From Capsulimonadaceae bacterium (GTDB taxonomy: Bacteria; Armatimonadota; Armatimonadia; Armatimonadales; Capsulimonadaceae), in the NCBI GenBank assembly GCA_965215505.1, contig OZ244065.1:4960001-5024000 (forward strand): 64,000 bases of DNA. The letters are read 5' to 3'. The position numbers and the translations under genes were made by a program. The notes below the pieces were generated by a model. It was not told the origin of the DNA. It was given only the letters and a program-made list of their open reading frames with translations, and did no database searches. The first letter of the stretch is position 1; the number at the start of each line of letters is the position of its first letter. Below are positions 33,965 through 51,141 of this stretch, one piece after another.

Positions 33965-34534
33965 TTAAGGTAGGGTAGCGGCGAGACGCATCTGCGCGGG
34001 CAGGACGCGGCGGGCGCCCGCATAGTGGGCGACGTAGTAGCCGTCGCCGAGGCTGTCCATGCGGACGCCCTTATGGGCGTTGGCCGCGTGGATGAACTTG
34101 CCCCCGCCGGCGTAGATGCCGACATGGGAAATGCCGCGCTTGTAGGTGTTCTTGAAGAAGACCAGGTCGCCCGGCTGGAGCTGGTCGTTCGAGATCGGCG
34201 TCCCGTGGATGTACTGCTCGGTCGCCGTGCGCGGCAGGGCCACGCCGTCGGTCGCGCCGAGGATGTAGCGGACGAAGCCGGAGCAGTCGAAGCCCGAGCG
34301 GGACGTGCCGCCCATCACATAGCGCGTTCCGCGGAAGGCATAGGCGGCCTGGACGGCGTTGCCGCTGGCGATGGCCCTGTTCTGGTCCTGCCGGTGGGCG
34401 AGCGTCGCCGTGTGGGTGGCGGCGGAGTGGTGGGAGCGGTGGGCGAGGCCCGCCTGGGCGGGGAGCAGGAGCGAAGCGGCACAGGCCAGCAGCGCCGCTG
34501 GCTTGCGGTCAAAAGTCAGTCGAGACAAAAGCAA
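33965..34534 (-). CDS. NlpC/P60 (C40) cell-wall peptidase
   Basis: GTRYVMGG...GFDCSGF, LPRTA..Q, LQPGDLVFF, SHVGIY.G.GKFIHA; signal peptide. Confidence 0.93.
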   Translation of the reverse strand: MLLSRLTFDRKPAALLACAASLLLPAQAGLAHRSHHSAATHTATLAHRQDQNRAIASGNAVQAAYAFRGTRYVMGGTSRSGFDCSGFVRYILGATDGVALPRTATEQYIHGTPISNDQLQPGDLVFFKNTYKRGISHVGIYAGGGKFIHAANAHKGVRMDSLGDGYYVAHYAGARRVLPAQMRLAATLP

Positions 34535-34647
34535 AAGTTCCTTTCGGGTTCATCTTTGGATCGCCGGCCGTAAATCTTAGGTGGCCGACGTGGGAAAGAC
34601 TATCCGCGAAGGCGGCACAGTCCGTGAGAGGGTCGGAAAAGGTGCGG

Positions 34648-34718
34648 CGAACACATTATAGTGTTCGTGCAATTTTTCACAACCAGGACATTCTAACACA
34701 AACAAGACGTTTTTGCAA
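34648..34718 (-). promoter_or_regulatory. Tandem promoter candidates and palindrome upstream of the NlpC/P60 gene
   Basis: TTGCAA-17-TAGAAT (34718-34690); TATAAT (34660-34655) centred in CGAACAC-N6-GTGTTCG (34648-34667). Confidence 0.5.
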
Positions 34719-34870
34719 GCCGAACCCGGTAAATTTGCGGATTCGCCCGAAACCGGGGCCTGGCCTCGTCCGCCTCGGCCATATGCGTCCGGGGGCTTGG
34801 CCTTGCTATATGGGCACGTTTGCGATATAATAGCCGTATTCAGTTACGGCAGGAAAAGAACACGCGCCTT

Positions 34871-35566
34871 ATGTCTGAAGATGTCGGCTTCCTGCTCCGG
34901 GGCGGCCCCGTGATGTGGCCCCTGTTTCTCTGCGGCGTGGTCAGCGTCGCCGTCATGATCGAGCGTTTCCTCGCCATCGGCGCCGCCGTCCGGGACAACG
35001 AAGCTTTAATGAGCCGCATCTCCACACTGCTCAAGGCCGGGCAGGCCGCCGACGCCCTGGCCTTCTGCGAGCAGTCGCCGGGGCGGATCGCCAAAGTGGT
35101 CGCGGGCGGCCTGCGCTCCGCCCACCTGGACCGCGACCGGATCGAGCGTTCGATGGAGGAGTCGGCCCTGAGAGAGCTGCCCACCCTCTATGACCGCCTG
35201 GGCGTGCTGGACACCATCGTCACCCTCGCCCCCCTCCTGGGGCTACTGGGGACAGTCACCGGCATGATCCACGCCTTCCACGTCGTCGGCTCGGCGGCGG
35301 GCCTGGGCGGCAACCCGAACGCCATCACCAGCGGCGTCTCCGAGGCCCTGGTCGCCACCAGCGTCGGCCTGACCATCGCCATCGTGACCCTGCCCGCCTA
35401 CAACTTCCTGACCGAGCGTGTCAAGGAGAACGTCGGCGAGATGGAGCTGCGCGCCGCCCAGTTCCTGAACGTGGTCGCGGCGATGGACTACGACGAGGCC
35501 CAGAAGACTCAGGCCGAGGCAACGGCTCAGAAGGACGGAGAAACCCATGAAGCTGTCGCGCGGTGA
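34871..35566 (+). CDS. exbB: MotA/TolQ/ExbB proton channel protein
   Basis: GGPVMWPL, APLLGLLGTVTGMI.AF, GVSEALVAT.VGL.IAI. Confidence 0.92.
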   Translation: MSEDVGFLLRGGPVMWPLFLCGVVSVAVMIERFLAIGAAVRDNEALMSRISTLLKAGQAADALAFCEQSPGRIAKVVAGGLRSAHLDRDRIERSMEESALRELPTLYDRLGVLDTIVTLAPLLGLLGTVTGMIHAFHVVGSAAGLGGNPNAITSGVSEALVATSVGLTIAIVTLPAYNFLTERVKENVGEMELRAAQFLNVVAAMDYDEAQKTQAEATAQKDGETHEAVAR

Positions 35567-35963
35567 GATGAAGCGGGCACGGATCGAGATCATCCCGATG
35601 ATCGACACGATCTTCTTCCTGCTAGTCTTCTTCATGATCACCAGCCTCTCCATGGTGCCCATGTCCGCCCACCGGGTGGACCTGCCCTCCAGCGAAACCG
35701 CCGCGCTGAAGCCGCAGGAGAAGGTCGTCGTCACCATCTCCAAAGAGGGCGACTTCTATGTGGACCGGGAGCGCGTGGCCGAGGGCCAGATCAAGCCGCT
35801 CGTCGCCGCCCGCGTCAGCGAGAACCCGGCCGTCGCCGTCATCATCAACTGCGACAAGGACCAGAAGCTGGACAAGTTCCAGCGCGCCTTCGACCTGATC
35901 AAGCAAGCCAACGCCGGCACCGTGATGATCGCCACCGCGCCCGAAGCGCCTTCGCAGCCTTAG
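35547..35963 (+). CDS. exbD: ExbD/TolR protein
   Basis: [19 protein letters not shown] with conserved TM Asp; VDLP; INCDK. Confidence 0.92.
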   Translation: MKLSRGEMKRARIEIIPMIDTIFFLLVFFMITSLSMVPMSAHRVDLPSSETAALKPQEKVVVTISKEGDFYVDRERVAEGQIKPLVAARVSENPAVAVIINCDKDQKLDKFQRAFDLIKQANAGTVMIATAPEAPSQP

Positions 35964-35988
35964 AGTATCAGAGGATGCCGAGACCACG

Positions 35989-36492
35989 ATGAAGTTCCCG
36001 CCCCGCCAGATCAAGCGCGCTCGGATCGAGATCATCCCGATGATTGATACGATCTTCTTCCTGCTGGTCTTCTTCATGATCACCAGCCTCTCCATGGTCC
36101 GCATGAAGGCCATGACCGTCGTCCTGCCCCGCAACACGCCCCCCGCCGCCGCGAACGCCCCCGCGGGCAACGCCGCCGACCGGCAGCACCTCGTCATCCT
36201 GACCGTCAGCGACGCGGGCGGCTACTACCTGGGGACGCGCCGGATCGCGCCCGAGGCTTTGGGGGCCGCCCTGCAATCGCGGGCCACCTCGGACCCCCAC
36301 GCTGTGGTCGTCCTGAACGTCGCCAAGTCGCAAACCGCCCAGACGCTCATCAAGATCATGGACGCCGTCAACCGTGTCCGCACCCCCGACGGGCAGCCCG
36401 TCTCGGCCCTGATGGCGACGGAACCCGTGGACCAGACGGGACACGCCCTCACTGTGCCGCCCCTGCCGAGTGGAAACCAAGCAAGCCCATGA
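35989..36492 (+). CDS. exbD: ExbD/TolR protein (second paralogue)
   Basis: Identical TM segment [29 protein letters not shown]; divergent periplasmic domain. Confidence 0.9.
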
Positions 36493-39400
36493 ACAAAAAG
36501 AAGCGGATCGCCGTCGCCTACCTGGCCTCGTTCCTGCTCAACGGGGTCTTCTGGCTGGTCTACGCCCGCGAGCTGCGTCAGGCGGGGGCCACCCCGCCCA
36601 AGCCCGCCCCCGCCGCCAGCAGCTTCAAGCCCCTCGTCCTGGGCCAGTTCAAGCCCCTCCCGCGCCGCGAACTCCCGCCGCCCGCCACGCGCGCGGCGAA
36701 TGCGCCCAGCGGGATGAAGGCCGGCGAAACCGGCGCGAATGGCAGGCCCGGTACGGCGGACGCCTCCCGCTCCGCTTCCCTAGACAGCCGCCCGGACCAG
36801 GCCGCGTCCGCTTCGGGGGCCGCCGCCCAGGCCGCCGGGCTGTCCGCGGGCGCAAACGCTTCCCGCCCTGGCCTCACGGCGTCGGGTGCCGCCGGTCAGG
36901 CCCCGGCCGCTTCGGCAGGCCTCGCCCCGGCGGGGCTGAAGGCGGCCGTCCAGGGCGGGAAGCAGGCCGTGGGAGGCAGCCGCGCCTCGCTGACGGCGCA
37001 CGGTCAGGCAGGCAAGACCGGGGCAGCAGTCCGGGTGGCGTCCGCGCAGACCCCGTCCGGCACCTCCTCCAGCCATGACGACTTGGCCGCCTCCGAGAAC
37101 GGCGGCGACAGCGCCGCGTCCGCCGCCGCCGTCCGCGCGCAGGCCCTGGCCGCCGCCCGCCTGGCCCTGCTCCAGTCCGCCGCACTCAAGGCGGCCATTC
37201 CGACCGACAAAGACGGCAGCGATAAAGACGGCAAAGACGCGAAGAACCCCGAGCCGGAGAAGGCGAAGGCCGACAAGCAGAAGCCCCCGCCCCCCGGCCA
37301 GAAGGTCGCCCTCAAAGTCATCAAGATGTGGACCCCCCGGCCCGGCCAGAAGTTCAACCTGGCGACGAGTCTGAACATTACCCTCCCGCCGACCCTGACG
37401 CTGGTTCCCGGCCCCCCGCTGACCCCGGAGCAGATGGAAGAGATCCAGAAGCTCCTGCGCCAGCAGAAGCTCAAGCATGTGACGCTTGACCGCAAGCAGC
37501 TCAAAAAGCTGATCGCCGCCCAGCGCATCGCTGAGGACACCAAAAAGCCGGACCAGAAGCAGCCCGGCGACGAGGGCCGCAAGCGCGAAGCCAAGCGCGA
37601 GCAGAAGCCGCGTGTCGCCAAGCCGCGCACCGCCTCCGCGCGCCGCCCCGCCCCCGCCAAGATCGCCATGGCGCGGCCCCGGTCGCCGTTCACCTACAAG
37701 CAGTGGAACAGCGACATGCTCCGCCGCTGGCAGCCGACCTCGCCTGCCGCCGAAGCCGCCCAGGGCGGTGCTGCGGGTGATCCTTCCCAGCGAGTCGCAA
37801 GCAACGGACAGCCCGGCCAAGACCCGGCCTCCCCCCTGGCGCTCCACCCGCCGGACGGTCAGGCGGACGGAGTCCCTGGCACGAATGCCGAGCCTCAGCC
37901 CGGCGCTGCGGGGACGCCCGGCGCTGCACCCGTTGGACCGCCAGGGGCAGACGGAACTCCGAACGCCGCTAACAATCCCCCCGCGTTGGGAACACCTGCC
38001 AACCCCACGACAGGCCAAGCAGGAGCGCAAGGCCAAGCAGGAGCGCAACCTGGTGCTAACGCAGGGCAGCCCGGCGCACCGGCAGGGCAGCCCGGTCAGG
38101 CAGGAGCGCAGGCGGGTCAGCAAGGTTTAGCCGGTCAACAGGGCGTACAGGGCCAGCCTGGAGGGCCAACGACGGGGGCCGCAGGCAATCCATCAAACCA
38201 GGGGAACACCCAGAACGGCCAGCCTGGTGCGCCGCCCGCGTCACCTGCCAATCCCGGTGGTGCCGCTGGGTCAGCGGGCCAGCCCGTGACTCAGGGCACC
38301 CCGCCCACAGCGAGTCAGGGCGGCCAGCCTGGTGCGGCTGGTGGGCCAGCAGGCCAGCCCGGCGGACAAAACACACCGCCGACGGGACAGCCAGGGCAGC
38401 CAAACAACCCGGCCGGTCAGGCCGGTCAACCTGGCCAGCCAGGGGCGCAAGGCCAGCCAGGGGCGCAAGGCCAGCCAGGGGCGCAAGGCCAGCCAGGGGC
38501 GCAAGGCCAGCCAGGGGCGCAAGGCCAGCCAGGGGCGCAAGGCCAGCCAGGGGCGCAAGGCCAGCCAGGGGCGCAAGGCCAGCCAGGGGCGCAAGGCCAG
38601 CCAGGGGCGCAAGGCCAGCCAGGGGCGCAAGGCCAGCCAGGAGGAGCGGCAGGACAGCCGGGCGCGGCGGCGGGTTCTCCAAACCCGCCCGCGCCCGGCA
38701 ATCCGGGTCAGCCCGGCAATCCGGGTCAGCCCGGCAATCCGGGTCAGCCCGGCAATCCGGGTCAGCCCGGCAATCCGGGTCAGCCCGGCAATCCGGGTCA
38801 GCCCGGCAATCCGGGTCAGCCCGGCAATCCGGGTCAGCCCGGCAATCCGGGTCAGCCCGGCAATCCGGGTCAGCCCGGCAATCCGGGTCAGCCCGGCAAT
38901 CCGGGTCAGCCCGGCAATCCGGGTCAGCCCGGCAATCCGGGTCAGCCCGGCAATCCGGGTCAGCCCGGCAATCCGGGTGGCAACCCTCCTGCCGGTCAAC
39001 AAGGCGGGCAAGGACAGCCTGGTCAGCCGGGGCAACCGGGCGGTCAGCCGGGTGCTAACGCTGCTCCGCAAGGTGTGCCGGGCGGACCAGCAGGACAGCA
39101 GGGGCAACCTGGGGCGCAGGGTAATCAACAGGGCGCGAATGAAGGCCAGCCCGGAGGCCAGCCCGGAGGCCAGCCCGGAGGCCAGCCCGGAGGCCAGCCC
39201 GGAGGCCAGCCCGGAGGCCAGCCCGGAGGCCAGCCCGGAGGCCAGCCCGGAGGCCAGCCCGGAGGCCAGCCCGGAGGCCAGCCCGGAGGCCAGCCCGGAG
39301 GCCAGCCCGGAGGCCAGCCCGGAGGCCAGCCCGGAGGCCAGCCCGGAGGCCAGCCCGGAGGCCAGCCCGGAGGCCAGCCCGGAGGCCAGCCCGGAGGCCA

Positions 39401-41273
39401 GCCCGGAGGCCAGCCCGGAGGCCAGCCCGGAGGCCAGCCCGGAGGCCAGCCCGGAGGCCAGCCCGGAGGCCAGCCCGGAGGCCAGCCCGGAGGCCAGCCC
39501 GGAGGCCAGCCCGGAGGCCAGCCCGGAGGCCAGCCCGGAGGCCAGCCCGGAGGCCAGCCCGGAGGCCAGCCCGGAGGCCAGCCCGGAGGCCAGCCCGGAG
39601 GCCAGCCCGGAGGCCAGCCCGGAGGCCAGCCCGGAGGCCAGCCCGGAGGCCAGCCCGGAGGCCAGCCCGGAGGCCAGCCCGGAGGCCAGCCCGGAGGCCA
39701 GCCCGGAACTAACACTCCCAGACAATCCGCTCCAGGACAGCCGGGTCAAGGACAGCCGGGTCAAGGACAGCCGGGTCAAGGACAGCCGGGTCAAGGACAG
39801 CCGGGTCAAGGACAGCCGGGTCAAGGACAGCCGGGTCAGGGACAACCTGGGCAGGGACAACCTGGGCAGGGACAACCTGGGCAGGGACAACCTGGGTCGC
39901 AGGCTGGTCAGCCTGGCCAGCAAGGGGCACAGGCCGGACAGCCGAGTGATGCCGGGGCACAGGCCGGACAGCCGAGTGATGCCGGGGCGCAGGCAGCGGA
40001 TGGGAACCTGGATGCGCCTGCCGCAGCGGCAACACCGGGAACTTCGGGCGCGACGGGCGGCGTCTTGAGCGGAGAGCAGAATGATGGCATGTCGGACACC
40101 GCCGACCCGACGCAGATCACGGCGCAGAACACCGAGTCCACGGGCTTTGACACGCCCGAAACCCGTGCCTATCCTGACCTTCCCTCCGACCCGGTGGGCG
40201 GCGACAAGAAGGGCATTCCGGGCGCTCTGATCCTGCCGCCCTCGCCGCCGATGGGGACCGAGACGGGGAAGGACCCGACGCCGCACCCCGTCAAGACCAA
40301 CATCATCACCCGCGCCACCGGCAAGACGGCGACGCGCGTCAGCCCGGTCACGCAGCCGACGCCCACGAGCCGCGCGCAGGCCGCGCGCAAGGCCACGCCC
40401 GCCCCCATCGGCATGGCGAAGAAGACTGACGCCAAGCCGATCGCGCCCGCCCTGACCGTCGGCTCGACCAGCGCGCGCGGCACCGTCCCGGTCGTCGTCC
40501 TGGCCCGACCGCACCTCGCTCTGGGGACGGTGGCAGACACGATTGACCCGCCGCTGCCGCCCGCCAAAGGCACGCCGCGTTCGCACACCCTCGCGCTCAA
40601 GCAGGAGCCGGTCCGCGCCCTGGCCGCCGCCCGGACTCCCCCGCCCGCCGCACCCGCGCCGCCGACGGAGAGCGTCAAGAAGACCCCGCCCATCGTCCGG
40701 CAGGTCAAGAACAGCGAGGGCATCAAGGAGGGGACCGAACAGCCCTTGCCGCCGACCCCCCTGCCGGACAGCGACATGGAGATCGGCGACGGCTCCGGCC
40801 TGAAGGGCGACTACTACCAGGGCCGTCGTTTCGACCAGTTCCAGTTCACGCGGGCCGACCCGAACATCAACTTCGTCTTCACCGACCTGCCGGACCGGTC
40901 GCCCAGCCCCAAGATCCCCTCGGGCAGCGACTACACCGTCCGCTGGACCGGCAAGATCGCGGCGAAGTATTCCGAGACGTACACCCTCTACACCACCGTA
41001 GACGACGGCGTCCGCGTCTGGATCAACCACAAGCTGATCATCGACGACTGGACACTGCACGGGGCGACCGAGTTCTCCAACCGCTTCACCTTCAAGGCCG
41101 GGGAACAGTACCCTATCAAAGTGGAGTATCTGGAAAGCGCGGGCGGGGCCGCCCTCGTCCGGCTCTACTGGTCCAGCCCGAGCCAGCAGAAGCAGTACGT
41201 CCCCGAGGATGCCTTCTTCTACCCGCTGCCGAGCGACGAGGACGACCTGAAGAAAGACAAGGCCCCGCTGTAA
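36489..41273 (+). CDS. 1594-aa membrane-anchored protein: TonB-like anchor, Gly/Gln/Pro repeat stalk, C-terminal PA14 domain
   Basis: MNKKKR+TM (ASFLLNG); tandem GQP repeats; PA14 motifs [49 protein letters not shown]. Confidence 0.88.
38433..38630 (+). repeat. 18-bp tandem repeat x11 (GQPGAQ)
   Basis: GGCCAGCCAGGGGCGCAA exact copies. Confidence 0.95.
38694..38963 (+). repeat. 18-bp tandem repeat x15 (PGNPGQ)
   Basis: CCCGGCAATCCGGGTCAG exact copies. Confidence 0.95.
39144..39707 (+). repeat. 12-bp tandem repeat x47 (GQPG)
   Basis: GGCCAGCCCGGA exact copies. Confidence 0.95.
39735..39896 (+). repeat. 15-bp tandem repeat, about 11 units (GQPGQ) in two synonymous variants
   Basis: GGACAGCCGGGTCA(A/G) x7 then GGACAACCTGGGCAG x3 plus a partial unit. 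Confidence 0.9.
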
Positions 41274-41297
41274 AACGCGGCGGATGACGCAAGCACC

Positions 41298-42887
41298 ATG
41301 ACGTTACGATCTTCGTTCGCCTGGGCGCGGCCCGCCGCTGCGCTTGGCCTGCTCCTCTGCACCGGCCTCCCCCCCGCTTCGGCCCAGATCGTGGGGGGCC
41401 AGGCGGACGAAGAGGGCACCGCGCCGGTGCAGGTGGCGAAAGTCCCCGCGTCGGCCCGGCTCCAGCCCGTCATCCTGCCCGCTGACCCGAAGCCGGCCAT
41501 CCACGGCCCGCAGATCGTGGGTGCGACGCCTGGCCACCCGTTCCTGTTCCGCATCCCCGCGACGGGTGAGGAGCCGCTGACCTTCGCCTGCGCCGATTTG
41601 CCCCCCGGCCTCACTTTGGACCCGAAGACGGGCATCCTCTCCGGCACCGCCCCGGCGGCGGGCGATCACATCCTGCACCTCACGGCTTCCAACACACAGG
41701 GGAAGGCCACGCGCGCCCTCACCCTCAAAGGCGGCGACCACCCGCTCGCCCTGACCCCGCCGATGGGCTGGGACGCCGTCAACCTCTATGCCAACACCGT
41801 GGACGACGCCAAGACGCGGGCGGCGGCGGACGCCCTAGTCAAGTCCGGCCTGGCCGCGCACGGCTGGTCCACCATCCACATCAATGACACCTGGCAGGGT
41901 GTCCGGGACAAGAAGACCGGCGAGATCCTGCCTAACCGCCGCCGCTTCCCGGACATGAAGGCGCTGGCGGACTATGTCCACGGTCAGGGCCTCAAGTTCG
42001 GCCTGGAATCCTCCGCGACCGAACACACCTGCGCCGGGTTCCCCGGCAGCCTCGGCCACGCCTCCCAGGACGCCGCCACCTATGCCGGCTGGGGCGTGGA
42101 CTATTTGCAATACGACTGGTGCCCCGTGCCGACGCTCGACGAGAAGCCGCCGCCCGACGACCAGACCGCCGCCTTCAAGCAGATGCGGACCGCCCTGGAC
42201 AAGACGGGCCGGGACATCGTCTTCGGCGTGGACAACTTCGGCGCGGGCGATCCCGGCGACTGGGCACCAGGCGCGGGCGCGAACACCTGGGTCACCAGCC
42301 GCGAGGTGTTCGACGACTGGCCGATCATGCTGCGCGCCCTGTTCGCGCAGCCCTGGACCGCCGACCGGGCCGGGCCGGGCCACTGGGGCAATCCCGGCCT
42401 GCTGATGGCGGGCAAATTCGGCGTCGCCGCCGTGCATCCCACCCGCCTGACCTTCCCCCAGCAGATGGCGCAGATCTCGCAGTGTGCCCTGCTCGGAGCG
42501 CCCCTGTGGCTCTCCTGCGACCTGACCTCGCTCGACCCAAACGCCTTCCACCCGTCCGTCACGGCCATGCTGACCGACGACGAGGTGCTGGACGTGGACC
42601 AGGACCCCGCCGGGCACCCCGCCGCCCAGATCACCGGCAACCGGTTGGTGCAGATATGGTCCAAGCCGCTCGCCGACGGCACGTTCGCCGTCGGCCTGTT
42701 CAACCTCACCGACACGCCCCACCAGCTCTGGGTCAGCCTCCCGAAAGTAGGACTCACCGGCGCGCAGCCGGTCCGTGACCTGTGGCTGCATCAGGACTTG
42801 GGCGACTTCACCGGCACGTTCGCCACCGACCTCCCCGCCTACGGGGTGGCACTGATCAAGGTCGGCAAGCCGGCCGCGCCGAAATAG
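41298..42887 (+). CDS. Secreted Ig-like + GH27 (alpha-galactosidase-fold) protein with degenerate active site
   Basis: LALTPPMGW, FPDMKALADYVH.QGLKFG, WGVDYLQYDWC, VRDLW; LPPGLTLDPKTGILSG Ig-like domain. Confidence 0.85.
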   Translation: MTLRSSFAWARPAAALGLLLCTGLPPASAQIVGGQADEEGTAPVQVAKVPASARLQPVILPADPKPAIHGPQIVGATPGHPFLFRIPATGEEPLTFACADLPPGLTLDPKTGILSGTAPAAGDHILHLTASNTQGKATRALTLKGGDHPLALTPPMGWDAVNLYANTVDDAKTRAAADALVKSGLAAHGWSTIHINDTWQGVRDKKTGEILPNRRRFPDMKALADYVHGQGLKFGLESSATEHTCAGFPGSLGHASQDAATYAGWGVDYLQYDWCPVPTLDEKPPPDDQTAAFKQMRTALDKTGRDIVFGVDNFGAGDPGDWAPGAGANTWVTSREVFDDWPIMLRALFAQPWTADRAGPGHWGNPGLLMAGKFGVAAVHPTRLTFPQQMAQISQCALLGAPLWLSCDLTSLDPNAFHPSVTAMLTDDEVLDVDQDPAGHPAAQITGNRLVQIWSKPLADGTFAVGLFNLTDTPHQLWVSLPKVGLTGAQPVRDLWLHQDLGDFTGTFATDLPAYGVALIKVGKPAAPK

Positions 42888-42892
42888 ACACT

Positions 42893-44395
42893 ATGGACCG
42901 TACACATTACCTCCCGCTGCTGGCACTCTCGCTCTGGGGCGTACAGGTCCCCGCTGTCGCCCAGCGTGTCCCGCCGACCCCATCACCCGCCGACCCTGCC
43001 GCGCCCGCCACGCCGACTAGGCCGGTCAAGCCGCCGGACCCCAAAGTCGCCGCCCTCATGGACGCCTTGCGCGCCAAGGATTTGGCCCAGGTCAAGCGCA
43101 TGCTGGCGGCGGGGGACAGCGCGAACAGCGCCCTTGACGACGGCACCTCCGCCCTGATGACGGCTTCGGGGACGGGCGACCCCGCCCTCGTCAGCCTGCT
43201 GCTGTCGCGCGGCGCGGACGTCAACGCCCGCGCCTATGACGGCGACAGTGCCCTTCTGGAAGCCGCCCACAAGGGCAGCGTCCCCGCCCTGACGCTGCTG
43301 CTGGCGCACGGTGCGGATGTGAAAGCGGCCGACAAGCTCGGCGTCACGCCGCTCATGGAGGCCGCCCATTCCGGCAACCCCGCCGCCGCCGCGCTGCTGC
43401 TGGCGCGCGGCGCGGACGCAAACACGCTGGACACCAAAGACGGCTACTCGGCCCTGATGATCGCCGCCTACTCCGGCTATTCCCGGACGGTGCAGGTCCT
43501 GCTCGACCACGGCGCGGACCCGAAAGCCTCGGACCTGAACGCGCGGACGCCGCTGATGAACGCCGCCTACTCCGGCGACGTGCCCAGCCTCACGCTGCTT
43601 CTGGCGAAGGGGGCAGACCTGAACGGCCGCGACCGGGACGGCTTCACGCCGATCGCGCTGGCCGCCGGCGCGGCCCGGCTCGCCGCCACCCAGGCATTGC
43701 TGGCAAAAGGGGCGGACGTGAACGCCCGCACCGTCACCGGCTTCACGCCGCTGATGCAGGCCGCCGCAGCGGGCAGCATCCCCGTCATGCAGCTCCTGCT
43801 CGACAAGGGCGCAGATAAGGACGCCGTGACGACCGGCGGGGCGACGGCGGCCATCGTGGCGGCCTATGGCGGGCGCGGGTCGGCCGTCAAGCTGCTGCTA
43901 GACCAGGGGGCCGACGTCAACGCCTCAGACAGCGCCGGCCACACCGCCCTCATGGGCGCGGCCTTCGCCGGCGATGCCCCGCTCGCCAAGCTGCTGCTGG
44001 GCCGGGGGGCCGAGGTCGCCACCAGGACCGAAACCGGCTTCACCCCGCTGATGCAGGCCGCCTACGTCGGCAGCGCCGCCATCGCCGGCATGCTGCTGGA
44101 CAAAGGGGCGGACCTGGAAGCCAAGAACAACCTGGGCTACACCGCCTTGATGCAGGCCGCCGCCTCCGGCAGCCTGCCCACCGCCCGCCTCCTGCTGGAG
44201 CGCGGCGCGGACGTCGGCGTTGAAGACAACAAAGGGAATAATGCCCTCTGGTGGGCCTTGCGCCACCGCCACGACGACGTCGCCGCCCTGCTCCGCAAGG
44301 CCGGGTCGCCCGAGCCGGCCACCCTGCCGGATGCACCGCCCCCCGCCCCCGCGCCGCCGGTCAGTCCCTTCAATCCCTATTCGCGCTCTGTGTGA
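42893..44395 (+). CDS. Secreted ankyrin-repeat protein
   Basis: Roughly a dozen G.TPLM.AA..G....V..LL..GAD.N repeats after a signal peptide. Confidence 0.92.
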   Translation: MDRTHYLPLLALSLWGVQVPAVAQRVPPTPSPADPAAPATPTRPVKPPDPKVAALMDALRAKDLAQVKRMLAAGDSANSALDDGTSALMTASGTGDPALVSLLLSRGADVNARAYDGDSALLEAAHKGSVPALTLLLAHGADVKAADKLGVTPLMEAAHSGNPAAAALLLARGADANTLDTKDGYSALMIAAYSGYSRTVQVLLDHGADPKASDLNARTPLMNAAYSGDVPSLTLLLAKGADLNGRDRDGFTPIALAAGAARLAATQALLAKGADVNARTVTGFTPLMQAAAAGSIPVMQLLLDKGADKDAVTTGGATAAIVAAYGGRGSAVKLLLDQGADVNASDSAGHTALMGAAFAGDAPLAKLLLGRGAEVATRTETGFTPLMQAAYVGSAAIAGMLLDKGADLEAKNNLGYTALMQAAASGSLPTARLLLERGADVGVEDNKGNNALWWALRHRHDDVAALLRKAGSPEPATLPDAPPPAPAPPVSPFNPYSRSV

Positions 44396-44804: not shown

Positions 44805-44838
44805 GCCCGCCGCTCTCTGACAGCGGCGGGCTTTTTTT
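44805..44838 (+). terminator. Intrinsic terminator
   Basis: GCCCGCCGCT...AGCGGCGGGC-TTTTTTT. Confidence 0.85.
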
Positions 44839-47675: not shown

Positions 47676-49248
47676 ATGGCCCTCCCGCTCAACATTGACG
47701 ACGTTCTGCTCGGCCGCTCCGTCGAATGGGAGCGCCTGGAGTTCAAGCAGAACTGGAACCCGGAGGACGTGCTGCACACGCTCTGTGCGTTCGCCAACGA
47801 CTTCCATAACCTCGGCGGGGGCTATCTCTTTATTGGCATCGCTGATCAGGACGGGCCGCCCGTCCTGCCGCCGTCCGGCCTCAACCCCGCCGCCCTGGAC
47901 CGGCTGCAAAAGGATGTGCTGGAGATCGGCCACCGCCTCGTGCCCGCATACCACCCTCTGATGGACCCCTGCGTCATCCAGGGCCGGCACGTCCTGATAC
48001 TCCGCGCCCCCGGCGGTCAGAGCCGCCCCTATAAGGCGCCCGTCTCGCTCTCCAAAGACGGCAAGGTCTACGGCTACTACATCCGCAAGGGGTCGAGTAC
48101 GGTCCGGGCCAATGCCGATGAAGAGGTCGAGCTGTTTTCCCTGGCGGCGCAAATCCCCTACGACGACCGCATGAACCAGCGCGCCTCCGTTCTGGACTTG
48201 AGCCTGCCGTTGATTAAGGCATTCCTGCGTGACACCGGCGGTGCCCTCGCGGACCAGGCCGACACGATGCCGTTCGGCGACCTCTGCCGCCGGATGGCGA
48301 TCACGGACGGCCCGACTGAATACACGCTGCCGCGAAACGTCGGGCTGATGTTCTTCAACGAGTCGCCCGAACGCTTCTTCCCGCAGGCCCAGATCGACGT
48401 CGTCCTCTTCCCCGACGGGCCGGCGGGCGGCAGAATCATCGAGCGAGTCTTCAAAGGACTTTTGAGCCAGATGCTCCGGGATGCGCTGCTCTTCATCAGC
48501 AACTCCGTCCTGGAAGAAACCGTTGTCAAGCGCCCCGACCGGGCGGAAGCGGACCGGTTCTTTAACTATCCCTATGCGGCAATCGAGGAGATCCTGGTCA
48601 ACGCCGCCTACCACCGCAGCTACGAAATCCGCGAACCCGTCGAAGTGCGCGTCCTCCCCGAGTGCATCACCATCACCAGCCACCCTGGGCCGGACCGGTC
48701 CATCTCGCTCACAGACCTGGAGAACGGTCGGCTCGTCGCGCGCCGCTACCGGAACCGGCGTATCGGCGAGTTCCTGAAAGAACTACGCCTGACGGAAGGC
48801 CGGGGGACCGGCATCCTGACCGTCATCCGCGCGATGCGCGGAAACGGCTCGCCCGCCCCCGCGTTCAATACCGACGCCGACCGGACCTACTTCACGGCGA
48901 CTTTGCCGGTACACGCCCTGACGACCCCCCAAGTACCCCCCAGTAACCCCCCAAGTAGCGCAGAAAGCAGGGCGGGGAAAGATGCGCGTCATGCTGGACT
49001 ACTGCGTCAGCCCGCGTGACCGCGCCAGCATCCAGGTCAGGCTGAACCTAAGAAACCAGAAGGACGCGCGCCAGCGTTATCTCATGCCCGCCATGGCCGC
49101 CGGCTGGCTGACGATGACCGACCCCGCGCACCCCAACTCTCCCGCACAGAAGTACCGCACAACACCACTTGGGTTGGCACTCCTGAATGTGGAAGAAGGC
49201 CAGGAGGAGGCAGACGCCCTTGCCTCCCCGCCGCCCCGCGTGTTATAA
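47676..49248 (+). pseudogene. AlbA_2/Schlafen-like + HATPase_c_4 (RecG C-terminal-like) + winged-helix protein, frameshifted before the last domain
   Basis: LEFK, CAFAN...GGYLFIGI, EILVNAAYHRSY, YRNRRIGEFLKELRLTEGRGTG; wHTH with YLMPA...MT.P..PNSP.QKYR lies in another frame after TPQV repeats (~48924-48957). Confidence 0.8.
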
Positions 49249-49823: not shown

Positions 49824-51141
49824 GATAGTGTCAAGTTGTTTCTGTAAAAGCTGGGAGCATCCTTGCGCGGCTGTTATTCTGTGGTCGCCCGTTCTATGAA
49901 GGTCAGGTAGGCTTTGCCTGCCTGCCAGTCGTCGCTGATCTCCATCAGCACCGCGCTCGCGAGGCGCAGGCAGGACGCCTCGTTCGGGAAGATGCTCGCC
50001 ACCTGTGTGCGCCGCTTCACCTCGCGGTTGACCCGCTCCACGCCGTTGGTGGTCCGCAGCAGACGGCGGTGCGTCTCGGGGAAGGCGAACACGGCCAAGC
50101 CTTCGGGCAGGGTTTCCTCCATCCAGGCCGAAAGCTTGGGCGCAGTCGCCTCGTACTTCTGCACCGTCCGCTTCAGCAGTGCGTCGGCCTCGGCCCTGTC
50201 CTGAGCGCCAAAGATGGCGCGGATGTCTGCCGCCACGGGCACCTTCATGTCCTGTCTGGGGACGTGGGCTGAGGCGTTCTGCTGCAAGTGGAACTGGCAG
50301 CGCTGCCACGGCACGCCGCCCAGCACCGCCAGCCGTGCGGCTTTCAGCCCCTCGTGGGCGTCACTGATGACGAGGCGCACCCCGCACAGGCCACGCTGGA
50401 TCAGGCTTTGCAGGAACGCGCGCCAGTGGACCTCGTGTTCGGACAGAGCAACCGAGACGCCCAGCACGGAGCGTTTGCCCGTTTCATCCACGCCGATGGC
50501 GATCAGCACGGCGGCTTTCTGGACAAGCCCCGACTGGCGCACCCGTTCGTAACGGGCGTCCAGGTAGACGTAGGGCTGCGGCGCAAGCGGGCGACTGCGC
50601 CACGCCGCAAGAGTCGCGTCGAGTTCCTTCGCCGCCTGGCTGACCTGGCCCGAGGAGACCTCGAAGCCGCAGAGCCGTTCGGTGATGGCGGCCACCTTGC
50701 GGGTGGAGACGCCCTGCACATACATCTCGGCCAGAGCCAACTTCAGGGCGCGCTCGGAGCGCGTGCCTTTCTCCAGGCTCTGTGGGTAGAACCCGCCCTC
50801 CCGCACCTGGGGCACGGCGACGGTGATCTGGCCCAGGCGGGTAACAAGCGTCTTGTCCTTGTAGCCGTTGGCGTGGCCTGTGCGCGCCTCCGTGCGCTCA
50901 TTGGGGGCCGCGCCCAGATGCTTCTGGCGCTCAATTTGCATGGCGGCGTTGAGCAGGACGCGGAAGAGATCGGGCAGAGCGTCCAGCCCTTGCGTCGTGA
51001 GCTGCTCCAAAAGGGGCGCGGACAGAGTAGAATCGTCCTGGTAGGTCATGGGTGGTGTTCCTTGCTGTGTGGCAACTCCACGGATACTCCCTGACCTACT
51101 ACTTCAGGCCATCGCTTTTACAGAAAACATTTTACAATAAC
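49824..51141 (-). mobile_element. IS256-family insertion sequence (copy 2) with 8-bp target-site duplication
   Basis: GGTTCCCT at 49816-49823 and 51142-51149; ~27-bp imperfect terminal inverted repeats. Confidence 0.95.
49874..51049 (-). CDS. IS256 (Mutator-type) transposase
   Basis: Same motifs as 20263-21441, similar but non-identical protein. Confidence 0.96.
   Translation of the reverse strand: MTYQDDSTLSAPLLEQLTTQGLDALPDLFRVLLNAAMQIERQKHLGAAPNERTEARTGHANGYKDKTLVTRLGQITVAVPQVREGGFYPQSLEKGTRSERALKLALAEMYVQGVSTRKVAAITERLCGFEVSSGQVSQAAKELDATLAAWRSRPLAPQPYVYLDARYERVRQSGLVQKAAVLIAIGVDETGKRSVLGVSVALSEHEVHWRAFLQSLIQRGLCGVRLVISDAHEGLKAARLAVLGGVPWQRCQFHLQQNASAHVPRQDMKVPVAADIRAIFGAQDRAEADALLKRTVQKYEATAPKLSAWMEETLPEGLAVFAFPETHRRLLRTTNGVERVNREVKRRTQVASIFPNEASCLRLASAVLMEISDDWQAGKAYLTFIERATTE

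Follow-up and report, generated by a model that had tools for sequence, protein, structure and literature searches.

Genes and features of the operon

The 64-kb window (the whole stretch of DNA analysed) comes from a soil-dwelling member of the Armatimonadota and contains six co-oriented, tightly packed genes. Their products are ExbB, a pair of ExbD paralogs, a protein of 1594 aa, a GH27-like protein and an ankyrin protein with a signal peptide. A cluster of this kind had been claimed in a preliminary description, with which the ORF coordinates and translations agree.

34803..34831, + strand: promoter-like site TTGCTA-17-TATAAT, 40 nt before exbB (consensus match only)
34871..35566, + strand: exbB, 231 aa, pentameric proton-channel subunit (PF01618, 4.1e-31)
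35547..35963, + strand: exbD1, 138 aa (PF02472, 1.3e-25)
35989..36492, + strand: exbD2, 167 aa, second heterologous ExbD (PF02472, 7.7e-21)
36489..41273, + strand: putative TonB-like force transducer with a PA14 head, 1594 aa (ORF, Pfam)
36495..36581, + strand: putative anchor helix, residues 3-31, bearing S14-x3-N18 (AF2 helix pLDDT 77-89; invariant S14/N18)
36624..36662, + strand: motor-box-like stretch of 13 residues, 46-58 (pattern shared with orthologs and the genome's TonBs)
37302..37718, + strand: conserved mid-stalk module with short helices, residues 272-410 (conserved blocks and AF2)
38433..39898, + strand: tandem DNA repeats coding the stalk, perfect and in-frame (a 16-letter protein motif and GQGQP)
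40203..40577, + strand: two conserved linear motifs preceding the head (relatives' alignment; modelled disordered)
40794..41210, + strand: PA14 head, residues 1436-1574, with Asp-Asp calcium motif (PF07691, 3.4e-22; AF2 pLDDT 70-89)
41298..42887, + strand: GH27-like secreted protein, predicted pseudoenzyme, 529 aa (He_PIG, Melibiase_2 and Melibiase_C, Pfam)
42893..44395, + strand: ankyrin-repeat protein with N-terminal signal peptide, ATG start (Pfam ankyrin repeats)
44805..44831, + strand: terminator-like hairpin, strong, 10-bp stem and T run (consensus match only)

The ATG of exbB sits within a TTG frame starting at 34820. The genes exbB and exbD1 overlap by 20 nt, exbD1 and exbD2 are spaced by 25 nt, and the stop of exbD2 overlaps the transducer start in an ATGA at 36489-36492, read directly in the DNA. 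Gaps of 24 nt (41274-41297) and 5 nt (42888-42892) precede the GH27-like and ankyrin genes, respectively. The four junctions named beforehand (all except the exbD1-exbD2 spacing) were found in the sequence, as were the ankyrin repeats and N-terminal signal peptide of the protein described as a secreted ankyrin protein. The six genes are bracketed by the promoter-like site and the terminator-like hairpin, both being consensus matches only. No TonB-dependent receptor is encoded within the 64-kb window, as had been stated, and the PF00593 matches (3.455 and 4.637 Mb) and the Plug protein (5.54 Mb) all lie elsewhere in the genome. The cassette itself encodes no outer-membrane partner, porin or receptor.

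Anchor, stalk and head of the 1594-residue protein

The transducer has a single hydrophobic segment (approximately residues 6-27), in which ASFLLNG supplies S14-x3-N18, matching the one N-terminal transmembrane helix with an S-x-x-x-N pair proposed earlier. Both residues are invariant in seven of seven relatives and then in 11 of 11 full-length relatives (22-59% overall identity), and they are also present in all N-terminal relative fragments displayed. A cleaved signal peptide was considered as an objection. The invariance of S14 and N18, together with the lack of a conserved cleavage motif behind the helix among the relatives, supports reading the helix as a conserved anchor and not as a signal peptide. 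The anchor has Asn where those of TonB and TolA have His; Asn had been put forward beforehand as a tolerated substitute for this His (His20) in E. coli TonB. A cryo-EM preprint describes Ser16 and His20 of E. coli TonB as contacting ExbB and the His as essential (10.1101/2024.10.08.617233). The transducer helix may likewise dock on ExbB; E. coli ExbB TM1 has a Ser-x3-Trp pair, whereas ExbB TM1 lacks it in all cassettes here, and the E. coli docking geometry is therefore not directly transferable. Residues 46-58 show a motor-box-like pattern of alternating hydrophobic residues followed by PLPP, which recurs in the orthologs and in the TonBs of the genome; the term 'motor box' is defined in PMC12204202. 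No strand is predicted at the proposed box in the AF2 monomer model of the N-terminal part, which has low confidence except for the helix.

About 1400 low-complexity residues lie between helix and head, and the protein is rich in Gly (20%), Pro (16%), Ala (13%) and Gln (13%). The GQP repeat stalk claimed previously is confirmed by in-frame tandem DNA arrays of 18 nt x 11.6, 18 nt x 15.9 and 12 nt x 47.1, all with 100% matches, and by a further in-frame array of 15 nt x 10.9. In a comparison with the same-genus ortholog (L015) and with L115, the arrays were absent from both. The mid-stalk module consists of three conserved blocks (residues 272-319, 328-346 and 395-410) with AF2 helices at 313-325 and 335-350 (pLDDT 50-72) and no compact domain. 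The motifs before the head are GIPGALxLPPxPP (residues 1239-1270) and GSTSxRGTVP (residues 1317-1363). In all 11 long forms the stalk has between 870 and 1400 residues.

In the Pfam scan, PA14 was the only match over threshold, accompanied by a sub-threshold GLEYA match, and the 1594-aa protein gave no match to TonB_C or a TolA family. This agrees with the claim that the protein ends in PA14 without a TonB C-terminal domain, and the VDDG noted in the head is present. The best solved match of the head is PA14A of RsgI3 (6qe7; 44% identity, E 3e-66). Clostridial RsgI PA14 modules, to which the head is 44% identical, are pectin/xylan sensors, and the RsgI3 PA14 is described as binding pectin via a calcium ion, which the Asp-cis-Asp motif holds together with a polar residue of CBL2 (PMC6852018). 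In six of six transducer heads, both Asp and the Glu that aligns with calcium ligand Q130 are invariant, and four of five further head representatives keep them; in the relative P0050, the CBL2 ligand position is Ala. The polar CBL2 ligand is Glu in the head described here, in contrast to Asn or Gln in the solved PA14 lectins. In the tree, the transducer heads cluster apart from the PA14 modules of the genome's glycosidases (90/87 support). The head had been proposed to be of a glycan-binding type; its nearest modules are proven polysaccharide binders, and it probably binds glycans itself.

Relatives of the cassette and its partner genes

The same genome contains a cassette B of the order ExbB-ExbD-ExbD-TonB-TBDT, to whose motor proteins those of the PA14 cassette are closest at each position, with 57% (ExbB), 54% (ExbD1) and 45% (ExbD2) identity. 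The ExbB TM1 (VMWPLFLCGVVSVAVMIERF) is nearly identical to that of cassette B, and D20, the transmembrane Asp, shows no variation in ExbD1 (5/5 orthologs) or ExbD2 (6/6). The ExbD1 clade has 84/96 support, and the cassette B D1 is the sister of all PA14-cassette D1s (87/86). The fourth gene of cassette B encodes P0008, which resembles TonB: it has an SVFIN anchor and a Pro-rich linker, and it matches TonB_C weakly (18.5 bits vs a cut-off of 24.6, E 0.0028). The gene for the TonB-dependent receptor comes after that of P0008. This position-by-position motor paralogy and the S-x3-N TonB of cassette B indicate that the PA14 cassette, judged by its sequences, is a Ton cassette with its head exchanged. 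A conventional TonB as the true partner of this motor was also considered. Both ordinary TonB candidates of the genome reside in separate ExbBD cassettes of their own, the remaining two TonB_C proteins are fusions with a Ser/Thr kinase and an alpha/beta-hydrolase, and no spare TonB is left for the motor.

The ExbB-ExbD1-ExbD2-transducer order was found in the window and in nine fetched loci (L015, L016, L017, L025 and L113-L117), with partial or compatible arrangements in L026, L035 and L119. Gene order is conserved in the genus, the order and other Armatimonadota families: the syntenic loci come from families f1, f2 and f5 and range from 53% to 70% GC, an ortholog of the head occurs also in f12, and at least four families of Armatimonadota have the cassette.

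The GH27-like protein retains the nucleophile Asp, has Glu in place of the acid/base Asp, and has lost the sugar-pocket Arg and a second pocket Asp. The acid/base Asp, pocket Arg and pocket Asp are missing in all eight cassette-linked GH27-like proteins, three of which also lack the nucleophile; P0180, a free-standing paralog in this genome, retains all these residues. The 'pseudo-GH27' label given earlier therefore fits, and from its residues the partner is predicted to be a pseudoenzyme. The ankyrin gene adjoins the transducer gene in 10/10 long-form loci, and in nine of them both partner genes lie downstream of the transducer, in either order; the two are fused in L016 and in the database protein P0100. 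The short-form paralogs (L017, L025, L026 and L035) have neither gene, so the partners are not needed by every PA14 transducer.

Another PA14 cassette in the genome has the order TPR-ExbB-ExbD-P0007. P0007 has a PA14 head as well, together with a Lys/Pro linker and an SVLIH anchor of the canonical kind. All 27 database relatives with a complete N-terminus have the S-x3-H of this type, and L028 and L031 share the TPR gene.

Competing explanations and the proposed machine

The anatomy and motor coupling put forward in the preliminary description are backed by the comparisons of anchor conservation, gene order and TonB content. We consider the cassette to encode a proton-motive-force machine of the Ton type in which the energy transducer carries a swapped head, with a probability of roughly two in three.

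A substitute for Tol-Pal, in which a TolA-like PA14 transducer tethers or remodels the outer membrane or wall via an envelope glycan, for example during division, in a lineage without TolB and Pal, is unlikely, although several observations are compatible with it. The absence of tolB noted for the window extends to the whole genome, which has no TolB_N match; ExbB and ExbD1 have the TolQ and TolR models as their top NCBIfam matches, far under the cut-offs; the TPR/YfiO-like first protein of the P0007-type cassette recalls CpoB; and the divergent upstream gene, which is syntenic in L015, encodes a wall hydrolase of the NlpC/P60 type. However, genes for a core envelope function would be expected in nearly all genomes, whereas 5 of 40 close relatives and 13 of 301 phylum-sample genomes, the window's own counted, have head orthologs (at least 54% identity), a patchy distribution that marks the machine as accessory. 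The glycosidase look-alike and ankyrin partners, along with the real glycosidase that follows the L025 paralog cassette, point to carbohydrate handling, and the head is nearest to plant-polysaccharide sensors.

This last similarity, to the anti-sigma factor RsgI3, and the ECF sigma genes that immediately precede the short-form cassettes of L017 and L025 would suit a trans-envelope glycan sensor relaying PA14 binding to gene expression (RsgI or Fec-type) and exerting no force. Such a sensor is a still less probable reading: the cytoplasmic part of the transducer comprises only ~6 residues with no anti-sigma domain, the window has no adjacent sigma factor, only a weak HTH_23 match on the opposite strand, and the invariable ExbB-ExbD-ExbD genes are left unexplained.

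Lower again we rank a surface adhesin or gliding leg, whose stalk would pass the outer membrane so that the motor moves a lectin foot, as compared with Myxococcus Agl-Glt. An extended stalk of 870-1400 residues would far exceed a periplasm crossing, but as a random coil ~1400 residues would measure ~30-35 nm end to end, an estimate from a polymer scaling law that is roughly periplasm-sized. While vWA transducers are suggested in PMC12204202 to act in gliding, the cassette and its flanks lack genes for an outer-membrane conduit, a secretin, an autotransporter or Glt-like proteins. Least probable is incidental linkage of a membrane-anchored periplasmic lectin to a motor serving ordinary TonBs: E. 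coli Ton and Tol motors can cross-complement (10.1101/2024.10.08.617233), but the stop/start-overlapping adjacency is retained across families at 53-70% GC, the anchor residues are invariant, the ordinary TonBs both own motors, and the second, unrelated motor cassette likewise has a PA14 transducer, whose S-x3-H is canonical.

In the preferred Ton-type machine, a pentameric ExbB channel would enclose an ExbD1-ExbD2 heterodimer, and the transducer would dock outside ExbB through the S14/N18 face of its N-terminal helix, with the short, strand-forming motor box behind it contacting the ExbD periplasmic domains. The disordered Gly/Pro/Gln/Ala stalk of ~1400 residues, bearing a few conserved linear motifs, would cross the periplasm to a tip formed by the PA14 head, which may bind polysaccharide in a calcium-dependent manner, and the motor would pull on the cargo of the head. 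The secreted GH27-like pseudoenzyme could serve as a non-hydrolysing, galactoside-type binding module. Together with the ankyrin protein it would be an obligate partner, most likely holding or presenting the glycan ligand or docking on stalk motifs. The net job would be energised capture, displacement or hauling of glycans in the envelope without a TonB-dependent receptor. The cassette points to an unstudied energy-driven machine handling cell-envelope glycans. Non-TonB heads have a published counterpart in the vWA domains on TolA/TonB-like transducers beside tolQ-tolR-tolR, described in 2025 (PMC12204202). Domain II of published transducers has ~100 residues, a length that the stalk exceeds 9-14-fold.

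Gene order and motor genes

The cassette comprises six co-oriented and tightly packed genes, as stated in the preliminary description and re-read here from the open reading frames. The exbB and exbD1 genes overlap by 20 nt, a gap of 25 nt separates exbD1 from exbD2, and the exbD2 stop overlaps the start of the large ORF in the tetranucleotide ATGA. The following gaps are 24 nt (large ORF to GH27-like gene) and 5 nt (GH27-like gene to ankyrin gene).

Features of the window cassette (genes from the ORF listing and translation; the two bracketing sites are consensus matches only)
34803-34831, +, promoter-like site, 5' bracket of the six genes
34871-35566, +, exbB, 231 aa
35547-35963, +, exbD1, 138 aa
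35989-36492, +, exbD2, 167 aa
36489-41273, +, large ORF (transducer), 1594 aa
41298-42887, +, GH27-like gene, 529 aa
42893-44395, +, ankyrin gene, 500 aa
44805-44831, +, strong terminator-like hairpin, 3' bracket of the six genes

Both flanks are unrelated to the cassette, with an S1 protein, APS kinase and a divergent NlpC/P60 hydrolase upstream, and PSP1, a TPR protein and dihydropteroate synthase downstream. An Rfam search of positions 34400-34950 for a riboswitch or leader gave no match at E-values up to 1, and a check of 24 sequencing runs for positions 34600-37800 turned up no RNA data. A few kb 3' of the cassette, the window also encodes a Schlafen AlbA_2/HATPase_c_4 protein (47676-49019, +) and a Mutator-family transposase (49874-51049, -).

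The motor proteins were assigned using Pfam, with ExbB matching PF01618 at 107.8 bits (cut-off 22.9), and ExbD1 and ExbD2 matching PF02472 at 90.4 and 74.9 bits (cut-off 25.4). NCBIfam returned both TolQ/TolR and ExbB/ExbD matches for these proteins, all of them sub-threshold. The transmembrane aspartate D20 (PMIDTIFF), which occupies the proton-binding position, is invariant in all ExbD1 (5/5) and ExbD2 (6/6) proteins compared. The source genome contains five MotA/ExbB loci, whose neighbours were scanned with Pfam.

MotA/ExbB loci of the source genome
Cassette A, about 5.09 Mb, flagellar MotAB
Cassette B, 4.64 Mb, ExbB-ExbD-ExbD-P0008-TonB-dependent receptor
Cassette C, the window, PA14-transducer cassette
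Cassette D, 5.54 Mb, Plug protein-ExbB-ExbD-TonB (P0009, with TonB_C over the cut-off)
Cassette E, 1.32 Mb, TPR-ExbB-ExbD-P0007

Cassettes B and C are reciprocal closest paralogs, gene by gene (57% identity for ExbB, 54% for ExbD1 and 45% for ExbD2), and the sequence of the first ExbB transmembrane segment is near-identical between them. A tree of 27 ExbD proteins gave the D1 clade support of 84/96 and placed the D1 protein of cassette B as sister to all D1 proteins of PA14 cassettes (87/86). The TonB-like protein of cassette B, P0008, combines an SVFIN anchor with a Pro-rich linker, and its gene is followed by one for a TonB-dependent receptor; its assignment to TonB_C is based on this adjacent receptor and on a Pfam match below the threshold (E 0.0028, 18.5 bits, cut-off 24.6). 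BLASTP gave no alignment of P0008 with P0009, the TonB of cassette D. Based on the paralogy of cassettes B and C, the D1 tree, the P0008 anchor and the shared ExbB segment, the window cassette is most readily interpreted as a copy of an ExbB-ExbD1-ExbD2-TonB cassette, with PA14 taking the place of the TonB head and the Ser-x3-Asn anchor retained.

A conventional TonB encoded elsewhere was considered in the preliminary description as a possible partner of this motor. The TonB proteins of cassettes B and D sit with their own ExbB and ExbD, the remaining TonB_C matches of the genome are fusions with a Ser/Thr kinase and an α/β-hydrolase, and no orphan conventional TonB is left to use the window motor. 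In the first of these two odd fusions (locus L013:5238-6968, -), the Ser/Thr protein kinase has a membrane segment and ends in TonB_C; the second (locus L014:3744-5243, +) is a secreted α/β-hydrolase that likewise ends in TonB_C. A comparison of the His or Asn of the anchor with a partner residue in the first ExbB transmembrane segment (Trp38 in E. coli) found the Ser-x3-Trp pair of that segment in no cassette examined. In four loci from other Armatimonadota (L113, L114, L116 and L117), exbD1-exbD2 are preceded by a tandem pair of distinct exbB genes (e.g. L116:5597-6985), which suggests that their channels may be hetero-pentameric.

Anchor, stalk and PA14 head of the transducer

The 1594-aa protein has one hydrophobic segment (about residues 6-27). 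AlphaFold2 modelled a helix at residues 3-31 (pLDDT 77-89), followed by 400 residues of nearly all low-confidence coil with a few short helices. In TonB the anchor motif is Ser-x3-His, the first half of the SHLS motif, and Asn is able to replace its His. The window protein carries Ser14-x3-Asn18 rather than Ser-x3-His, and M1, S14 and N18 are invariant across all 11 full-length proteins. The available text of a recent study describes contacts of E. coli TonB Ser16 and His20 with ExbB (10.1101/2024.10.08.617233). Within the source genome, the Asn variant is also present in P0008, and Ser-x3-His in the type-2 paralog P0007. A conserved 17-letter stretch after the helix is a candidate motor box; the monomer model shows no strand there.

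The protein is rich in Gly (20%), Pro (16%), Ala (13%) and Gln (13%). Its GQP-type stalk is encoded by four perfect or near-perfect tandem arrays (18 nt × 11.6, 18 nt × 15.9, 12 nt × 47.1 and 15 nt × 10.9) within 38433-39898 of the window, all of them in frame and the 12-nt array at 100% identity. In the same-genus ortholog, and likewise in a 1583-aa ortholog from another family, the arrays are missing or degenerate. Since the repeats are perfect and strain-specific, arm length should be prone to slippage. The linker measures 869-1402 residues in all 11 long forms, and conserved blocks in the 11 full-length proteins are found at residues 272-319, 328-346, 395-410, 1239-1270, 1317-1363 and 1402-1590. 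Length and composition of the stalk are conserved, its sequence is not. The stalk also has two uninterrupted collagen-like Gly-X-Y runs (26 and 32 triplets); a conserved collagen triple helix was rejected, because the repeats are strain-specific and the other arrays have periods of four and five residues. By our estimate from polymer scaling of unfolded proteins, a chain of about 1400 residues would span approximately 30-35 nm end to end, which is about the width of a periplasm; thus, the stalk need not leave the cell.

The protein ends in PA14 (residues 1436-1574), the sole family over the Pfam threshold (PF07691, 79.3 bits, cut-off 24), and TonB_C, TolA or related families gave no match at E-values up to 0.01, in agreement with the first account of a C-terminus without a recognisable TonB domain. 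The last 160 residues were modelled as a PA14 sandwich (pLDDT 70-89) preceded by disorder. The solved structures most similar to the head, in sequence as well as in fold, come from clostridial anti-sigma factors, namely the PA14 dyads of RsgI3 and RsgI4 (E 3e-66, 40-45% identity); Foldseek gave a probability of 1.00 for 6qe7 as well as for many PA14 lectins. The RsgI3 and RsgI4 modules are described as binding pectin or xylan via a calcium ion, which is coordinated by a polar CBL2 residue together with the Asp-cis-Asp pair of strand 5, and loss of the Asp pair abolishes binding (PMC6852018, in the text available). The Asp-Asp motif of the window head (VDDG), already pointed out in the preliminary description, aligns with the calcium pair of RsgI3 at the level of residue identity; sequence by itself shows neither a cis peptide nor bound calcium. 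A Glu occupies the position of the RsgI3 ligand Q130. All three residues are invariant in six of six heads, and the Glu is present in four of five further representatives. These alignments support calcium-dependent glycan binding by the head, short of proof.

In a tree of 21 PA14 modules (midpoint root, small outgroup), the 16 transducer heads of both cassette types were separated from five glycosidase modules of the genome (90/87). Among the best 78 PA14-head matches from all phyla, an ExbD gene was found nearby in one only (a Capsulimonas sp. MAG), and none of the seven verrucomicrobial loci among them had ExbB or ExbD nearby. Other motor-linked proteins are therefore not revealed by similarity of the head alone.

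The second PA14 transducer of the genome is encoded in cassette E (L012:10810-15639, -; about 1.3158-1.3206 Mb of the contig), which consists of genes for a TPR/YfiO-like protein (698 aa), ExbB, a single ExbD and P0007. This 547-aa protein has a canonical SVLIH anchor, a motor-box-like stretch (EIELTLEPLPP), a Lys/Pro linker and a PA14 head. Database searches returned 33 relatives of P0007, including 29 close family members, with Ser-x3-His in all 27 that have a complete N-terminus; one relative is labelled as a TonB protein by its source. Cassette E is conserved in six same-genus genomes, and the TPR gene 5' of the motor is conserved in two type-2 loci (L028 and L031). One type-2 ortholog, P0037, bears the source label of a Janthinobacterium lividum MAG, which is probably a binning error, since the protein shares 50% identity with an Armatimonadota-restricted family.

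Conservation of the cassette and its partner proteins

Among 40 close relatives, head orthologs with at least 82% identity were found in four same-genus genomes and one with 54% identity in another family of the order, together with weaker paralogs. We fetched and scanned 20 loci from these relatives.

Loci fetched from close relatives
5 of 20 (L015, L016, L017, L025, L026), ExbB/ExbD genes immediately 5' of an S-x3-N...PA14 protein
2 of 20 (L028, L031), type-2 cassettes
1 of 20 (L034), 2-kb contig with an S-x3-N transducer alone
12 of 20, unrelated secreted PA14 proteins with neither ExbB nor ExbD

In a phylum sample of 301 genomes, 21 genomes (the window's own included) had a head match at E ≤ 1e-33, 13 of these with at least 54% identity over the full 186-187 residues. 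The 13 genomes are spread over four families of the phylum (f1, f2, f5 and f12), with nine of 27 genomes in f5. All seven loci fetched from this sample fit the cassette: five are complete, including four with a tandem pair of exbB genes; of the other two, one is interrupted within the stalk by an assembly gap and one is cut by the contig end. Their GC content is 53-56%, compared to about 70% in the window. A search with the N-terminal 440 residues retrieved 19 cluster representatives among 1.84 billion, and all four full-length ones combine S-x3-N with PA14. The synteny proposed for relatives was recovered for the motor and transducer genes, the transducer being directly linked to exbB-exbD in the window and in nine other full loci; the order of the two partner genes is variable.

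The GH27-like and ankyrin genes are both located 3' of the transducer in nine of ten long-form loci, and in L113 the ankyrin gene is present alone. Their order is GH27-ankyrin or ankyrin-GH27, and in L016 they form one 903-aa fusion; the database protein P0100 is another such fusion. In the same-genus locus L015 (14496-17797), the GH27-like gene is split into three frames and the ankyrin gene into two, and the tail of exbD2 is shifted. These breaks look like assembly frameshifts rather than decay, as this genome is 76% complete in two contigs. All four short-form paralog loci lack both partners; one continues with a six-hairpin glycosidase, and two have ECF sigma genes 5'. The latter genes are located directly upstream of the cassettes in L025 (1096-3087) and L017 (13091-13714). 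The L025 sigma domains form a fusion with CarboxypepD_reg domains, and the six-hairpin glycosidase of this locus is encoded 3' of the transducer; in L017, a PMT_2 glycosyltransferase-like gene comes after the sigma gene.

Pfam identified ankyrin repeats in the ankyrin protein, and He_PIG, Melibiase_2 (144.6 bits) and Melibiase_C (56.7 bits) in the GH27-like protein, whose PDB matches include 4nzj (E 2e-69) and 1uas (E 1.6e-54). In the rice enzyme (1uas), we take D130 to be the nucleophile and D185 the acid/base residue. Compared to 1uas, the window protein has kept the nucleophile Asp, the acid/base Asp is replaced by Glu, and the pocket Lys, Glu/Trp, Arg and second Asp are lost. Among 121 relatives, the acid/base Asp is present in 74 and absent in 47, the latter being the closest to the window protein. 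It is absent, together with the Arg and the second Asp, from all eight cassette-linked copies (a count that leaves out the fragmented copy of L015), three of which have also lost the nucleophile. The free-standing GH27 paralog of the genome, P0180, retains the full catalytic and pocket set. With these losses common to the cassette clade and P0180 intact, the partner is a conserved pseudoenzyme, which is read most simply as a glycan-binding module, and the pseudo-GH27 label given to it at first has held. The degenerate GH27 clade also includes proteins of about 750 aa with an extra Laminin_G_3 domain (P0072 and P0077-P0096; PF13385), and some members lack the nucleophile too; it amounts to a sizeable family of GH27 pseudoenzymes.

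Proposed machine and comparison with known systems

The reading favoured here is a Ton-like force machine, in which an ExbB pentamer and an ExbD1/ExbD2 heterodimer would form the motor, the transducer helix would lie peripheral to ExbB with a motor-box contact, and a disordered tether would be tipped with the lectin head. The pseudo-GH27 and ankyrin proteins may act as partners holding the ligand or docking on the tether, and this pair is conserved enough to be counted, with the rest, as one machine. A Tol-like tether, a sensor, a gliding leg and chance linkage were weighed as rival readings and judged less probable. A bolder reading, to which we give a probability of roughly one in five, is that of a Ton machine without a receptor. 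Its motor would reel in an elastic tether of 1000-1400 residues, tunable in length by in-frame repeat slippage, and the calcium-lectin head, the dead α-galactosidase as a second glycan clamp and an ankyrin scaffold gripping conserved proline motifs of the tether would haul polysaccharide into or through the envelope.

If true, this would represent mechanical glycan uptake or surface-polymer handling without a TonB-dependent transporter. To our knowledge, TonB and TolA were long the sole known means of bringing proton-motive energy across the periplasm from the inner membrane, to which a 2025 survey has added vWA-headed relatives, and here the same motor and anchor occur with a lectin-type head in a distant, little-studied phylum. 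The cassette may explain polysaccharide handling in bacteria with very few TonB-dependent receptors (two or three in this genome), and offers a compact genetic system for asking what a 5:2 motor does when pulling sugar instead of a TonB box, with anchor residues, calcium-site residues and repeat length as experimental handles. Named relatives of the organism are non-pathogenic bacteria of soil and bark. Should the cassette prove to serve common tethering of the envelope, Armatimonadota would thereby gain their first described Tol-like system.

A literature search on PA14 together with TonB and ExbB/ExbD found no description of a PA14-headed TonB-like protein. Akkermansia MUL1 was considered as a studied relative; in the text available, mul1A (amuc_0544) is called a mucin transport gene only, with no mention of ExbB or TonB.

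Among known systems, a close resemblance is to TonB, in particular in cassette B, where the transducer gene also directly follows exbD2 and the motor genes are position-wise paralogs. Shared features include a short cytoplasmic N-terminus, a single Ser-x3-polar anchor helix, a stretch resembling a motor box, and a periplasmic region that is Pro-rich or disordered. In contrast to TonB, the window transducer has a PA14 head instead of TonB_C, a stalk of about 1400 residues and Asn for His in the anchor, the Asn being common to the TonB of cassette B itself. As first described, the window has no TonB-dependent receptor, and the pseudo-GH27 and ankyrin partners are found instead; a cognate receptor was also not detected in the fetched cassettes, and the PF00593 matches of the genome lie elsewhere. 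The transducer shares with TolA a motor-linked anchor helix and a long domain II in the periplasm, parts of which are helical and rich in Lys/Glu, and TolQ and TolR were the best, although sub-threshold, NCBIfam models for the motor. However, TolA domain III, TolB and Pal were not found here (no TolB_N in the genome), and the cassette has an accessory distribution.

The GH27-like partner shares fold, domain order and, in the window copy, the nucleophile Asp with α-galactosidases (rice 1uas, and Bacteroides 4nzj with He_PIG), but its acid/base Asp and pocket Arg, Lys, Glu/Trp and second Asp are replaced, a feature common to the whole cassette-linked clade. The head resembles RsgI3/RsgI4 (6qe7, 6qdi; PMC6852018, as far as its available text goes) in identity over the whole module (40-45%), the strand-5 Asp-Asp, the polar CBL2 calcium position and its location at the far end of a membrane-anchored protein. 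It differs in being a single module rather than a dyad, with Glu at the CBL2 ligand position, and in its carrier, a diderm TonB-like protein instead of a monoderm anti-sigma factor.

TolA/TonB-like transducers with vWA heads, of unknown function, have been described after tolQ-tolR-tolR genes (Williams-Jones et al., Mol Biol Evol 2025, PMC12204202). The window head is not vWA but PA14, a term absent from the main text of that paper, and Armatimonadota are not among the phyla it lists for the vWA family. The window stalk is 9-14 times longer, and the type-1 cassette has an ankyrin gene instead of the upstream TPR gene of the PVC cassettes, which the type-2 cassette does have. Nevertheless, both groups share a three-part build, with a transmembrane helix, a disordered linker and a globular head other than TonB or TolA, encoded after a tolQ-like gene and paired tolR-like genes.
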